Origin: a virus
DNA length: 15,775 bases
Direction: 5' to 3' (one strand)
UHGV virus genome: UHGV-0129795
Part shown: positions 2,984 through 8,611 of the stretch, piece after piece
How positions within the stretch are numbered: position 1 is the stretch's first letter
Layout of the letters: each line of letters begins with the position of its first letter
The notes under the pieces: model-generated
Told to the model about the DNA's origin: nothing
Seen by the model: only the letters and a program-made list of their open reading frames with translations
Databases searched by the model: none
Program-made: the position numbers and the translations under genes

Positions 2984-3186
2984 ACGTAAAACCCTGCTGG
3001 CCCCCGGCGTCGTGATGTGGTGCCAACCTGAGATTCAAGGTCAGCAATATATTTTTTGAGATCGCTGACTGAAGTGGCTGTAAATTCCACTCTTCGACCG
3101 TCTTTCTGTACCGTCGCCACGCGCTTTCCCATCATCAGGTCATGTAACGCAGCGCGCGCGGCATCCAGTTCAGTCTGTGTTGCCAT
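2980..3186 (-). CDS. W: Head-tail joining protein W
   Basis: 68-aa ORF, the same length as lambda gpW. The internal block [28 protein letters not shown] and the C-terminal [10 protein letters not shown] match gpW from memory. Start shares 1 nt with the A stop. Confidence 0.9.
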
Positions 3187-5108
3187 TATTCATCTCCAGA
3201 TAATGCCCGCGCGTAATCCGCCAGGGTCTTGTTATTGTTACGGCTGCCTTCTTCCTCCAGCAGGCTGGCCAGAAGTGAATCAAGATTTAGCTGCCAGCGG
3301 GATATGCTTATACGCAGCGCCGCCAGTGCATAAACAAAGCAATCGAGCGCCTCATTTCGTCGTTTTTTGCTGTCCCAGACGATCTTTTTCTTTCCGTCTA
3401 CCCATTTTTCCACCTGCTCTTCAGCTGTTAGTTGTTGGGCCTCTGTTAGATCGTAGATTTCTGGGTTATTCGGGAAATGAACCGCTCCCGCCAGCGGCTC
3501 GTCTCTTTGCGCCACCAGCGTGAAACGGTTATAAATCTGCTCTTTTGCGGTGTCTGTTCCTACCTCTGTGAGGTAAACACCATTCTTGTTACGCTTGCGT
3601 GGCATGTTCGCCACTGGCTTTCCATAAACCGACGCCCCCTTTATAGGGATCACACGAAACAGACCGTGTTTTTTTGAGCGGTTGTAGACGATGGTGGGAT
3701 CAATGCCGCCAATATCCCAGCAAGTGCGGGATATAACCATTTCGAGACCGTTCTGGCGCTTATACGTCCTGTTGATCGCTTCATCAACTCGAGCGAGAGT
3801 CGACTCATCATCATGACGACCCATAATGATAATTTTGTCGATAAGCCAGCTTTCCTCTCCCGGCCCCCATCCCCAAACACGCATTTCGTAACGGTCAAGC
3901 TGGGAGTCAATACCCGCTGTCAGATATGCCACTCGCTCCGGCACAGACGCTTCAAAGTGCTCTTTTCGTTCCGCTAAAACTTCAGCATCGGGTCGTTCAC
4001 CTATTTTCGGTTCCCACGTTTCGCCCAGGGTCGTGTTAACGAAAGTTTTTCGCTTACCCGTATCACCTTTTGTTTTTATCCAGTCCTTGACGATCTGCAC
4101 CCAGGTTGTGAACGGGCTATATGCGGTCCAGATGTGGAATGTAACGCTGTCAGGAGGTTCAATTTCGGTACCGGATGAAGAAAACCAGTTAAGGCCGTCT
4201 CGTGTCCAGATACCTGTTTCATCACAAATATACCTGGCCTCCAGAAATTCCAGCTCCTGTTGTTTAATCACACAGGCATTGTGTTCACAGAGGTAGTAAA
4301 CGCTGGCAGGTTCTCCCGGAGACCATTTGAAGCCAAATGGTGTCTCTTTATCACCGAATTTCAGATACTGCTCTTCCCCACAGTGTGGGCATGGAACATG
4401 GAACCGAAGAAAATGTTCAGACTCCTTAGCAGCTCTTTCTATCTGGCACGTACCTTTGACTTTCGGTGTAGATCCGCGAATGGATTTCGGCCATACAGAA
4501 CCCTCAATACGCTTATCACCCAGAAAGGTGGGAGAACCTTCTTTCTCGATGTCATCATCGAAAGCGGCGAGCTCGTCGTAGCCAGCCACATCAACTGATT
4601 TTTCACGGTAGTTTTTTGCAGCCTTACCGCCCAGGCACCAGAAACCACGACCATTCGAGAAACGCTTCATGCTCAGCGTATTGTCCCGGTGTTTTTTACC
4701 GTACCAGGGAGCAAGCGCCAGCAACGTCGGAATATCACGAATGGTCGGTTCTACATGAGACTTCATGAAGTTTTCAGCATCACCGTCGGTTGGTAACCAT
4801 ATTAGGGAGTTACGCTGTTTATGTTGGATGAAATATGCGTAAACGCCGAGCAACATTTTTGAGTAGCCGACACGAGCCGATTTAACGACATTCACCTCGC
4901 GAATATAGTCATTACCCATCGCATTCATAATTGCACGCTGAAATGGCAGTGTTTCCCAGCGCCCTTCCTGGTAGGCAGACTCTTTCGGGAGATAATAATT
5001 CTCATCTGCCCATTCAACTGCTGTTTGCGGTTGCGGCCGGTACAGCGAACGTAACCCCGCCCGCGCAGAGTGCTGCAGCCCCTTAACCTGACTGTTCGAT
5101 ATATTCAC
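3186..5108 (-). CDS. A: Terminase large subunit A
   Basis: 640-aa ORF (lambda gpA is 641 aa). N-terminus [54 protein letters not shown] and the following several hundred residues are near-identical to lambda gpA as I recall it. Overlaps Nu1 by 26 nt. Confidence 0.95.
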
Positions 5109-5628
5109 TCAGCAACCCCGGTATCATTTCATCCAGCGCAGCTGCCTTGTTCATGGCCTTAATGATGTCCTTCTTGAGGAAATCAATATGTCGGTTCTCC
5201 AGCTCCGGGAAGCGCCGCTGAACCGACAGAGGTATTCCATCGAGAATGCTGGCGATTTCTCCGGCTACCCGCGACAGCACGAACGTGCAGAATGCGGTCT
5301 CCACCACTTCAGCGGACTCTTTTGCATTTTTTAATTCCTGAGCGTCAGCCTGAGCTCGCGTAAGTCGGTGTCGCTCATATTCAATCGTGCCAGGTTGAAG
5401 ATCGGACTCAGAAGCGATACGGAGATCTTCAACTTCCTTCCGCAACTTTTCATTTTCTATAGCTGCATCGCGCGCACTGTACCATTCGATTGCAGCAGCA
5501 GATTCAAAGAGAACCTCATTACCTTTGCCACCACCGCGGACAACCGGCATACCTTGCTCCTGCCAGTTCTGAATCGTTCGGACGCTTACCCCGAAAATTT
5601 CGGATAAGCGTTTTTTGTTAACCTCCAT
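5083..5628 (-). CDS. nu1: Terminase small subunit Nu1
   Basis: 181-aa ORF, the same length as lambda Nu1. MEVNKK..IFG.S.RTIQNWQEQGMPV.RGGGKGNEVL and the C-terminal ..[18 protein letters not shown] match lambda Nu1. First gene downstream of cos, as in lambda. Confidence 0.95.
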   Translation of the reverse strand: MEVNKKRLSEIFGVSVRTIQNWQEQGMPVVRGGGKGNEVLFESAAAIEWYSARDAAIENEKLRKEVEDLRIASESDLQPGTIEYERHRLTRAQADAQELKNAKESAEVVETAFCTFVLSRVAGEIASILDGIPLSVQRRFPELENRHIDFLKKDIIKAMNKAAALDEMIPGLLSEYIEQSG

Positions 5629-5916: not shown

Positions 5917-6384
5917 TCATCGCGACAGCGCTGACCATATCGTGCCACCTGGCCGAAGACTCTTCTTCAGTTCCTCGGACACAACATCTGAGATCGCTTT
6001 TACCATTTCAGGGGATAGCTTCACGCCGGTCTTAATTTCGGGACAGATGCCAACATTGATGGCATAGCCTTTTCGTGGGTCGTTCTCTATCCGGCCAAAC
6101 TGAATATTTACAGAGCCACCAATATAACCACCAGCAGGAACACCAAAGCGCGTATTCACCAGGTGCTTAATGGCGAACTCCTGCCCTTCAGCGGTCAGGA
6201 AGGTGTAATAATTTTCCTTTTGATACTCCGTCGCGGTATGGCGTGTTTCAGCGAATCCCAGCTCTAGAAGCTCAGCAGCACCAGATTTGGCTGGCAGATC
6301 ACCAGACTGAAGCGCGCCACGGAAAAACAGCGCATACAGAACATCCGTCGCCGCGCCGGACAACGTGATAATTTTATGACCCAT
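5917..6384 (-). CDS. Hypothetical protein (155 aa), accessory gene adjacent to cos
   Basis: Complete ORF with an AAGGA ribosome-binding site 8 nt upstream of ATG. Not a lambda backbone gene and no family recognised by eye. Occupies the Rz-to-cos interval where lambda carries bor and other accessory genes. Confidence 0.6.
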   Translation of the reverse strand: MGHKIITLSGAATDVLYALFFRGALQSGDLPAKSGAAELLELGFAETRHTATEYQKENYYTFLTAEGQEFAIKHLVNTRFGVPAGGYIGGSVNIQFGRIENDPRKGYAINVGICPEIKTGVKLSPEMVKAISDVVSEELKKSLRPGGTIWSALSR

Positions 6385-6496
6385 GATTTATTTCCTTTTA
6401 GGCGTGAGCCTGTCGCACGGCAAAGCCGCCGAAAGTTAACGGTTTGCCCAGGCTCACAGCTGAAAGACTTTCTACGATGTGCGCGTGCGATGCGCA

Positions 6497-6520
6497 TAAA
6501 AAAGCCGCGTGATGGCGGCT
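6497..6520 (-). terminator. Rho-independent terminator (minus strand)
   Basis: Minus strand reads AGCCGCCATCACGCGGCTTTTTTAT: a 6-bp GC-rich stem (AGCCGC/GCGGCT), 6-nt loop, then a 6-T run. Confidence 0.6.
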
Positions 6521-6649
6521 ACTGTTTGAATATCAGGGTGTTGTTTCGTCTTAACCCTGGTTAATGTAGGCATTCAGCCCGTCGGTGGTGGGACACTGGC
6601 GCACTTAATAAAGAGTAATGGCTGATTACCTCAGAATAAGGAATCAAAA

Positions 6650-6910
6650 ATGTCAGAAGGTTTTGGTTTAAAAGAAAAGGTTGAGCAGTTAGAAAAAGAA
6701 TTAGCCGTACAAAAAATAGCAAATCAGCTTGCTTTTGGAGCACTAATTAAAGCAGTTAATGAGCTGTACCCGAACAAAGATTTATATGATGGGTTGACAA
6801 AATTTGTCCAGGAAAAACTTGATCCTGAACGTGTTAAAAACATCCCTAATCTTCACGAGGCCTTTCTAGAAGCTGCGAAAATACTGAGGACTGACGCATC
6901 TCCTGAATAA
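6650..6910 (+). CDS. Hypothetical small helical protein (86 aa) in an AT-rich island, opposite strand to the phage operons
   Basis: Plus-strand ORF with an AAGGA ribosome-binding site 8 nt upstream of ATG. Codon usage is visibly AT-rich compared with flanking phage genes. Heptad-like charged sequence (KEKVEQLEKELAVQKIANQL). No family recognised. Confidence 0.5.
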   Translation: MSEGFGLKEKVEQLEKELAVQKIANQLAFGALIKAVNELYPNKDLYDGLTKFVQEKLDPERVKNIPNLHEAFLEAAKILRTDASPE

Positions 6911-7278
6911 TTTTATCAACAAAGGCAGTTGTGTCCTCTTGCTTTTCATTCACAATGCATGTGACTGCCTTTTCTAAAGCTGTAATTCGTTCTTCAAGTG
7001 TCATACCCACTCCTGTCATTGGCTTCAAAATGATAAACCCCGCATTTGCAAGTCCTATTTATACCCCGCAGGGGATAAAAACCATATTATCCGCTTGCGG
7101 GGATAACCATTATCAAGCCCACCAGTAGATGGGCTTTGTAATGGCTACTGGCGGTCATTATGCTGATGTAAGGCTTCGGGTCAGATGGCATCGTAAAATG
7201 CGCTGGTGGGTGTGGTCTGTTCATGAATAATTCCAGTGCTCCATTATCGAAGCCCCTCAGTGAAGGGCTTCTGTAATG

Positions 7279-7464
7279 TCAGTCCCGGACGAACGTAACC
7301 TTTGTGGTTATCATTCGCCGCACAAGGCGCGTCGCTTCGCGTTGCATTTCATCAATTACTTTTGGTGTCAGCGGCTGACGCGCATATTTGCGCTCAATCT
7401 CTGCAAAAATCCCGTTCAGCGCCTCGCTGTCTGGTGGGATAACTTCAACGTTTAATCGTGCCAT
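7279..7464 (-). CDS. Hypothetical small protein (61 aa) downstream of Rz1
   Basis: In-frame ATG at 7464 within track ORF 7279..7551, preceded by an AGGA-like ribosome-binding site. Overlaps the Rz1 stop by 20 nt. A 7-bp stem hairpin follows its stop (about 7248..7270). No family recognised. Confidence 0.4.
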   Translation of the reverse strand: MARLNVEVIPPDSEALNGIFAEIERKYARQPLTPKVIDEMQREATRLVRRMITTKVTFVRD

Positions 7465-7723
7465 CGGTTTGTCCTGCCCTGTTGTTCTCGAAAGTCCTGA
7501 TATCAGCCTTATCCCTGTTGCACTGCGCCAGCGCTGACAGCAACGTGACATTCAGGTTAAGACTTGCTCCCCACGTAAACGGGTCGGGTAAATCTGGCTG
7601 GGGTGTTTCAGCCGTCAGGCTGGCTGGTAACGGAACTACCGGAACAGGCACGAAGACCGTTCGCGTATTCGTGCAGCCGCTTAACTGCGCCAGCAGGCAC
7701 AACACGAACAGCACAATCATCAT
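7445..7723 (-). CDS. Rz1: Outer-membrane lipoprotein o-spanin Rz1 (overlapping architecture)
   Basis: Tandem Met codons at 7723/7720 in the +1 frame of Rz. Hydrophobic signal MMIVLFVLCLLAQLSGC with a lipobox (LSGC). Proline-rich mature part (PVPVVPLPASLTAETPQPDLPDP). Starts inside Rz and extends past the Rz stop. Confidence 0.75.
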   Translation of the reverse strand: MMIVLFVLCLLAQLSGCTNTRTVFVPVPVVPLPASLTAETPQPDLPDPFTWGASLNLNVTLLSALAQCNRDKADIRTFENNRAGQTDGTIKR

Positions 7724-8000
7724 CCGCAACAGCAGCCTTGATATCGTTCTCGGTTCTCTGTGACTCCAGTGCGATCTGCTGCCTGACATATTGATTTGTC
7801 TCCAGAATGATGTTCGTTATTGCTACGGTGCGCAGGACATTCGCGGTGATGGTCTCAAAGGAATCAGCGCGCTGTTCTGCATCGTCAGCGCGCCGCTGTT
7901 CCTCCAGAAACTTTCCATGGTAATGATTCGCTGACCAGACAAGACCACCAGCAATACAAGCAATAAACGTTAAAATGAGCGCCCAATAACTCATCTTCAT
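7608..8000 (-). CDS. Rz: Inner-membrane i-spanin Rz
   Basis: 130-aa ORF with an N-terminal transmembrane helix (SYWALILTFIACIAGGLVW) and a charged, helical periplasmic domain. Immediately downstream of the endolysin (4-nt overlap) and contains the Rz1 start. Confidence 0.8.
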   Translation of the reverse strand: MKMSYWALILTFIACIAGGLVWSANHYHGKFLEEQRRADDAEQRADSFETITANVLRTVAITNIILETNQYVRQQIALESQRTENDIKAAVADDDCAVRVVPAGAVKRLHEYANGLRACSGSSVTSQPDG

Positions 8001-8611
8001 ACCAGCAGCGCCGCCCGCGCCTTGTTGTATCGGACCTTACGATCCTCAATACCGTTCAGACCGCCGTTAATGATGCGAGTAACACGATTAATATCGGCAC
8101 CGTAGATCATGCAGCCTTTAGAGGTGTAGAACCATGCAGCTGAGCGCGCAGCCTGTAGTTCCTGTTCCAGTTGTTCAGGTGAAGTCACCAAATCTAACTT
8201 CAGAGCAGCCCCGCAGGTGCGATAATTGTCGAGGCCAGTGATTTGAATTAACCCTCTGCCGCGATATTTCCAGCCGTCGCCGGGCGCTTTGTTACCCAGG
8301 CGGTTGCTATACACCAGATTGGCAATAGCATCCTGACGAGCTGCATGTCCGGATGTTCTGCCAAGGGCATCAGCCTGCTGCTGTGTGATCCTCTTTCCGA
8401 ACGTCGCCACCAGCGCAGATGGTGTGTAGTTCAAATTTTCAACTACAGCGCTAAAGCCACCAGACTCATGACCTACCTGAGCGATGAACATGGCCTGATC
8501 CGCGGGTGCTGTAATGCCGAATTCTTTCATCGCTGCATCTACTGGTTGAAACCAGCGCACAGCCAGTCCGGCGCTGATACCAGCCGCCTTTTGAAATAAT
8601 TGTTGGTTCAT
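7997..8611 (-). CDS. Endolysin, glycoside hydrolase family 19 (chitinase-like lysozyme)
   Basis: 204-aa ORF with AMFIAQVGHESGGF, ANLVYSNRLGN, GDGWKYRGRGLIQITGL.NYR, RSAAWFYTSKGCM and INGGLNGIEDR blocks, which match GH19-type Salmonella phage endolysins as I recall them. Sits between holin and Rz. Confidence 0.9.
   Translation of the reverse strand: MNQQLFQKAAGISAGLAVRWFQPVDAAMKEFGITAPADQAMFIAQVGHESGGFSAVVENLNYTPSALVATFGKRITQQQADALGRTSGHAARQDAIANLVYSNRLGNKAPGDGWKYRGRGLIQITGLDNYRTCGAALKLDLVTSPEQLEQELQAARSAAWFYTSKGCMIYGADINRVTRIINGGLNGIEDRKVRYNKARAALLV

Follow-up and report, generated by a model that had tools for sequence, protein, structure and literature searches.

The genome of phage HK97 carries, between tail genes I and J, a convergent pair of genes whose products are annotated as a "moron" (gene 22) and a "reverse moron" (gene 23), the latter gene preceded by the leader sequence described below. 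The pairs gp23 (srb)/gp22 of HK022 and gp25/gp24 of ES18, located in ES18 between M and L, show the same arrangement. The moron annotation in the GenBank records of HK97, HK022 and ES18 follows Juhala et al. 2000 (J Mol Biol 299:27). No functional study turned up in literature searches on "reverse moron," HK022 srb, HK97 gp23 or mEp213. Another moron, bor of phage lambda, lies in the gap between Rz and cos, is transcribed against the late genes and presumably active in the lysogen; its product is a lipoprotein. Lambda bor is not known to have a convergent overlapping partner or to carry the leader described below.

A small overlapping antisense pair has been described for prophages of Staphylococcus aureus, in which Tha and Ith are expressed in opposite life-cycle states and act on each other (PMC11087260). 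This "noncontiguous operon" lies in the lysogeny module, and Tha is a HEPN RNase (PMC11087260). The locus described here resembles Tha/Ith as an overlapping antisense pair of a prophage and may, by inference only, share its reciprocity and interaction. It differs in its position within a late operon instead of a lysogeny module, and its genes show no sequence relation to Tha or Ith.

The DNA analyzed here, referred to as the window, is a stretch of 15,775 nt representing the late region of a lambdoid prophage, which is transcribed on the minus strand. The pair of interest sits in an AT-rich island with lysis genes on one side and packaging (terminase) genes on the other. This island, described as such in the earlier note, shows a GC content of 0.367 at positions 6601-7000 compared to ∼0.5 on either flank. 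The surroundings and the components of the locus are the following.

3186-5108, minus strand: gpA-like large terminase
5083-5628, minus strand: Nu1-like small terminase
5917-6384, minus strand: 155-aa phi80-like open reading frame (ORF)
6503..6520, minus strand: predicted intrinsic terminator, AGCCGCCATCACGCGGCT then TTTTTATGCG, from a consensus scan
about 6515..6649 (∼135 nt), plus strand: conserved leader, with a predicted promoter region and structured 5' untranslated region (UTR) at 6521..6649
6650..6910, plus strand: plus ORF, 86 aa, ATG start
6846..6910, both strands: putative two-strand coding overlap, 65 nt, with convergent 3' ends
6846..7004, minus strand: minus ORF, 52 aa, ATG at 7004, MTLEERITALEKAV...SSVFSQLLERPRED
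6921..6975, plus strand: inverted repeat (AAAGGCAGT at 6921-6929, ACTGCCTTT at 6964-6972) and T run
7014..7140: right flank, kept only in the sub-lineage of the window and Enterobacter according to alignments
7445-8000, minus strand: Rz/Rz1-like spanins
7997-8611, minus strand: GH19 endolysin
late region, minus strand: holins

The plus ORF is preceded by an AAGGA ribosome-binding site (6638-6642) and the minus ORF by GGAG on the minus strand (7013..7010), located 5 nt upstream of its ATG. The ORF listing contains a longer version of the minus ORF (6846..7028, 60 aa) with a TTG start. The earlier note had proposed convergent ORFs with a 3' overlap of about 65 nt, a 52-aa minus frame starting at the ATG at 7004 behind a GGAG site, and charged, helical products. 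These coordinates are reproduced, with an overlap of exactly 65 nt, and the ribosome-binding site and the ATG of the minus ORF are kept in relatives. Both translations are charged by inspection, and the plus protein is predicted to be all-helical (AlphaFold model; pLDDT of 72.6).

Judged by its sequence, the pair forms a self-contained cassette like that of genes 22 and 23 of HK97, which ties the locus to a group of cassettes noted since 2000. It shows the features of this class: a leader at the start of the antisense gene, a minus-strand terminator beyond it, and a convergent partner. The leader is 74-86% identical to those of HK97, HK022 and ES18, where the same minus-strand terminator is found upstream of the antisense gene and where the cassette is likewise inserted in the late operon. 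The extent of convergence is variable: the partners overlap by 123 nt (HK97), 81 nt (HK022) or 65 nt (window), and in ES18 they lie 4 nt apart. The proteins gp23 and gp22 of HK97, in contrast, are without detectable similarity to those of the window, and the insertion sites differ, being I-J or M-L in HK97, HK022 and ES18 and the lysis-terminase gap in the window. The plus gene takes the "reverse moron" position, antisense to the phage late genes, and the minus gene points in the same direction as the late genes. Lambda bor shares both the genomic gap and the antisense orientation with the plus gene. As a moron by definition, the plus gene would be expressed independently from the repressed prophage. 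It is highly probable that both genes are real and that they form a cassette of the HK97 moron/reverse-moron kind.

The island is 99-100% identical in mEp213, mEp043 and four complete Escherichia coli genomes. In the mEp213 record, both ORFs are hypothetical proteins (plus, gp72; minus, gp71), and the NCBI pipeline PGAP calls only the plus ORF (WP_016063087) and drops the minus ORF, so that the pair has been present in databases as two "hypothetical proteins," one of which is lost during automatic annotation. Protein searches yield homologues with 70-91% identity for the plus ORF and 81-85% for the minus ORF. Seven distinct diverged lineages were assembled from the homologue contigs, a Phytobacter genome and metagenome contigs. 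Both ORFs are open in all seven, with unchanged geometry. One lineage has lost 15 nt in frame from the minus ORF, outside the overlap. The cassettes of these lineages are found in the lysis-terminase gap, beside three different terminase types, or between tail genes M and L, and the plus ORF is antisense to the flanking late genes in every case.

Deeper relatives were collected in two steps, first by screening 1.8 billion representatives with a profile and then by an indexed search. They expand the plus-protein family to members with 25-37% identity, including HK633 gp67. Their plus genes are likewise oriented against the late operons that contain them, each convergent with a minus ORF whose relative frame is unchanged. 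The cassettes occupy four kinds of sites (the lysis-terminase gap, M-L, tape measure-distal tail, and I-J) with constant orientation. The retention of the same geometry in every relative found indicates that the pair is more than a chance arrangement.

Several remote cassettes (L037 at 3559-5016; L035, L036 and L038-L040) contain a gene for a 485-aa protein with a GT2-like glycosyltransferase N terminus, located in the lysis-terminase gap directly upstream of a 111-aa minus partner. Among HK633-type copies (L033 at 3268-3546 compared to L034 at 3212-3547), the minus partner is shortened from 111 to 92 aa, with loss of the overlap with the plus ORF and of the SSELFSQLS end.

The plus ORF is clearly under purifying selection, as judged by its substitution pattern. 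A dN/dS comparison for each frame, suggested in the earlier note, gives Nei-Gojobori values of 0.09-0.25 for the plus frame outside the overlap compared to 0.7-11 for control frames, with 0.48/0.20/1.12 substitution steps per site at the three codon positions. The minus frame shows weaker values outside the overlap, 0.53-0.84, with one shifted control frame at 0.25-1.13. Counted by its own codon positions, the steps in this part amount to 0.68/0.43/0.93 (chi-square P = 0.06). Two segments of the minus ORF are conserved (P = 0.018) and the middle nine codons are unconstrained; the probability of this ORF staying open by chance is ∼0.05 across four lineages. Its ribosome-binding site and ATG are retained while the sequence upstream diverges.

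The overlap shows the lowest variability of the whole module. Third positions of the plus frame drop from 1.12 to 0.33 steps per site inside it (Poisson P = 6e-5), as expected if the other frame is read as well. Deep relatives retain F, S, Q and L of the minus frame in this stretch, at positions where the opposite plus-frame residues differ (AA compared to VE). Since the SSxLFSQL residues persist where the opposing residues change, the minus frame is the better conserved of the two in this part. These 65 nt would be a clean case of a sequence encoding two proteins on opposite strands.

The minus protein matches phrog_28630 and the plus protein matches phrog_21164, both families without known function. 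Members of the minus family start with M-[TN]-L-E-[EQ]-R-[VI]-x-A-L-E (MTLEQRVEALE), which reads MTLEERITALE in the window. The minus partners in deep relatives measure 44-111 aa and share the MTLE[EQ]RVxALE start, an [IL]IQE..SSxLFSQL end, or both. The MTLEQRV start recurs in 28 cassettes with otherwise unrelated sequences, where the variability of minus codons 2-11 is 1.86/0.75/3.14 by codon position and a GAAAGGnGGAG ribosome-binding site is conserved upstream. The minus ORFs with this start overlap the plus ORF in 28 of 28 cases, by 4-65 nt, the window showing 65 nt. BLASTP of the 52-aa minus protein against the 111-aa partner of remote cassettes gives no match, and the C-terminal motif shared with remote partners is seen only by register-matched inspection. 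From the conserved start, the C-terminal motif, the codon-position pattern and the conserved ribosome-binding site in deep relatives, we conclude that the minus ORF is a gene. Two minus proteins of the MTLEQRV type, from L085 and L041, show sub-threshold matches to Pfam Phage_Tail_Tip (E of ∼1e-3), which is the C-terminal tip domain of lambda J.

The plus ORF might be the only gene of the locus, with the minus ORF as a chance frame across the plus 3' end and its terminator. The restriction of the PGAP call to the plus ORF, the minus-frame dN/dS range beside that of the shifted frame, and the conservation of hairpin arms at minus-frame third positions would fit this reading. It is nevertheless unlikely in view of the frame being open in all lineages, including the one with the 15-nt in-frame deletion, and of a ribosome-binding site and ATG that outlast changes in the sequence upstream. 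A start motif common to 28 unrelated cassettes with codon-position variability in the order 3>1>2, an SSxLFSQL segment kept opposite differing plus-frame residues, and suppressed synonymous sites of the plus frame in the overlap further argue against it. The earlier note had left open whether one ORF is a shadow of the other or whether both form a convergent small-protein pair. Intact frames in seven lineages, the plus-frame dN/dS, the conservation of the overlap and the family start of the minus protein argue for the pair, with protein-level constraint on both members and neither of them a shadow.

The inverted repeat of 9 bp reported inside the minus ORF is real, with its second arm at 6964-6972, shifted rightward by one base from the position first given (about 6963..6971). 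The second arm is followed by TCT, and the T run reads CCTTTTCT. The repeat had been offered as a terminator of the plus gene in place of a coding minus ORF; the terminator is plausible, but it does not replace the coding sequence, and both hold together. The arms keep 8-9 of 9 positions paired in six of seven lineages, but the minus ORF is intact in all seven, contrary to the disruption expected of a shadow frame. RNA folding, also suggested in the earlier note, shows a weak hairpin for the window, with a 9-10-bp stem, a 34-nt interior and -13.3 kcal/mol (z = -0.66). In relatives, the stem is lengthened by differing sequences and folding energies are -16 to -21 kcal/mol, and the 15-nt deletion of one lineage shortens the hairpin loop. 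In a survey of 71 distinct cassettes, 65% contain, in the 160 nt downstream of the plus stop codon, a hairpin of -10 kcal/mol or lower with a T tract immediately behind it, compared to 3% positives among shuffles. The HK97 and ES18 records also annotate terminators after the antisense gene. The repeat is kept in relatives and coincides in position with the plus-strand terminator of most related cassettes; it is therefore probably the terminator of the plus gene, a weak one, embedded in the minus coding sequence.

The best conserved part of the module, the leader, lies upstream of the interval 6650-7004 covered by the earlier note. The leader is better conserved than any protein downstream, with 74-88% identity (blastn) to HK97, HK022, ES18 and HK633. 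Leader and adjoining minus-strand terminator show 75-88% identity in HK633, HK022, HK97, ES18, SPN3UB and others, in which the downstream proteins differ. A 15-mer search of IMG/VR together with a profile search yields at least 139 leader copies, with 170 loci examined. At least 75 distinct small proteins from many unrelated families are found downstream of these copies, the start codon of this cargo always at a fixed distance from the leader. A profile made from 14 copies, one of them from the window, gives the leader of the window a score of 150.8 bits. The leader is present in about 199 of 5426 complete E. coli genomes (∼3.7%). The cassette class is known and annotated; the shared structured leader is an unexpected addition. 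One structured leader ahead of at least 75 small proteins points to a common expression platform for accessory genes of prophages. Four viral contigs (L148, L059, L065 and L111) contain two leader copies with different cargo, so that one phage can hold two such cassettes.

The minus-strand terminator at 6503..6520 recurs in this position in most of the 79 leader copies, its stem showing G-C to A-U covariation across copies, and the records of HK97, ES18 and HK639 annotate a terminator at the equivalent position. The stretch from the start of the 155-aa ORF to this terminator (6400-6506) is 93-98% identical in HK639, phi80, mEp237, mEp390 and many E. coli genomes without the two ORFs. In HK639, the equivalent stretch lies within the tail operon, and it resembles an independent mosaic unit with the terminator in common.

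The structure of the leader was derived from an alignment of 79 distinct copies with RNAalifold and comprises the following elements.

6562..6567, plus strand: candidate -10 element TAATGT, assigned by inference to the plus gene promoter
6575-6579 with 6620-6624, plus strand: helix A (RNAalifold), enclosing P1
6581-6587 with 6594-6600, plus strand: hairpin P1 (RNAalifold)
6612-6618 with 6627-6633, plus strand: helix B, crossing helix A

The first T, the A and the final T of TAATGT are invariant in the 79 distinct copies; the three bases in between and the ∼7 nt that follow the hexamer are variable. This pattern suggests a -10 element of the plus promoter. A -35 element is not recognized near it, and a simple promoter scan did not call the site. 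Sigma-54, sigma-32 and other promoter types, compared by eye with the leader, do not fit in spacing or conservation. Three pairs of hairpin P1 show compensatory changes, found in 10, 10 and 17 sequences. Across the helices, 90.5% of the alignment cells are paired, compared to 30-49% with the partners slid by 1-3 columns, and the observed values are reached in 0 of 500 shuffles. Helix B of the window itself forms only 4 of 7 pairs. Because helix B crosses helix A, the RNA would be pseudoknotted or adopt two alternative folds. G.U and U.G pairs are common, with U.G cells at one P1 pair in 53 of 79 sequences; these would be A.C mismatches on the minus strand, which assigns the structure to the plus-strand RNA. 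Rfam contains no family for the plus-strand leader, and no description of it was found in the literature.

The Rfam candidate isrK (RF01394), with a terminator-driven minus-strand match of 17.6 bits (E of 0.1-0.4) compared to a gathering score of 50, was rejected. The isrK RNA, a small RNA of Gifsy-1, resembles the locus in its prophage origin and in having two hairpins plus a terminator, but it lies downstream of a Q-like gene, and the match in the window is on the strand opposite to the leader. This weak full-length match, together with the position of the leader next to a minus-strand terminator, could suggest that the leader works on the minus strand, either as a small RNA ending at 6503-6520 or by forming the 3' terminus of a late or moron transcript. 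The score far below the gathering score, the fixed distance of the cargo start codons and the frequent pairs that are mismatches on the minus strand make this improbable and favor a leader acting in the plus-strand transcript.

For the minus gene, the right flank at 7014..7140 is a possible promoter or operator region. It contains CCCCGCA and GGGGATAA repeats, a palindrome (CCCCGCAGGGG) at about 7064-7074 and, at 7116-7140, a plus-strand hairpin, AAGCCCA..TGGGCTTTGT = AAGCCCAccagtagaTGGGCTTTGT. A promoter consensus scan called nothing in this flank. A minus-strand promoter-like site at 6937..6910 is taken as a chance occurrence, as the first base of its -10 element is lost in most relatives.

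The anatomy of the cassette, with its putative promoter, 5' UTR, terminators and orientation, suggests reciprocal expression of the two genes, for which Tha/Ith is a precedent. In the lysogen, the plus gene would be transcribed from its own promoter (-10 TAATGT, 6562-6567) through the structured 5' UTR, and the transcript would end at the hairpin within the minus ORF. Upon induction, Q-modified late transcription would read through the cassette and both terminators, which would yield the minus protein together with an RNA antisense to the whole plus mRNA. The plus product would thus be expressed in the lysogen and the minus product from the late operon. As a guess, the two would form a cognate pair of a lysogen-expressed factor and its late-expressed partner or antagonist. 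Between cassettes, the two proteins vary in concert, which fits a cognate pair but may also reflect mere physical linkage. The best overall explanation, an HK97-type cassette with two coding ORFs, reciprocal expression and a cognate pair, is rated as fairly probable as a whole; the mechanism of reciprocal expression and cognate pairing, rated by itself, is tentative and more doubtful than otherwise.

A type I-like RNA toxin-antitoxin system, in which one transcript acts mainly as antisense RNA through the 3' overlap, would be compatible with the convergent, overlapping transcripts. With the minus terminator located beyond the whole plus gene, the minus transcript would even be fully complementary to the plus mRNA. 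Type I pairs with a 3' overlap are known from prophages, such as TxpA/RatA and BsrG/SR4. The probability of such a system here is low, since both proteins, on inspection of their translations, are charged and without the hydrophobic stretch typical of type I toxins, constraint acts at the protein level in both frames, and PADLOC finds no match.

Searches of Pfam, NCBIfam and PADLOC give no match for the plus or the minus protein, and fold comparison gives no match that assigns an activity to either. The same searches with ten other cargo and partner proteins yield only DUF1883, a sub-threshold Lar-like zinc ribbon and the sub-threshold tail-tip matches, none of them with a known function. That the plus protein is an IraP-like anti-adaptor stabilizing RpoS is most improbable: UniRef names the distant family member P0045 "Anti-adapter protein IraP," and the size of 86 aa and the helical content are similar, but the IraP profile PF10796, which scores E. 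coli IraP with 117 bits, matches neither the window protein nor 10 relatives, even at E of ≤10, and the hhalign probability of a relation to the IraP profile is 0.2%.

A more far-reaching and speculative proposal, which we consider rather doubtful, takes the leader as a cis-regulatory RNA not described before and widespread among lambdoid phages of enterobacteria. This RNA, pseudoknotted or fold-switching, would direct the lysogen-specific expression of hypervariable small proteins, each cognate to its overlapping, late-expressed minus protein. In this proposal, a pair might consist of an exclusion or defense factor and its own inhibitor against autoimmunity, or of a late effector and its immunity protein. 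If true, the cassettes would represent a polymorphic two-protein system in late operons that links lysogeny and lytic growth. If the proteins are functional partners, the cassettes would be a new source of factors for phage-host and phage-phage interactions and a ready test bed for antisense control within operons.

Two further observations concern the lysis side of the island. The flank at 7150-7300 matches E. coli loci annotated as "putative metallopeptidase." A 90-aa ORF on the minus strand (7279-7551), which follows the spanin genes, matches phrog_12811 from residue 30 only, so its true start may be internal.
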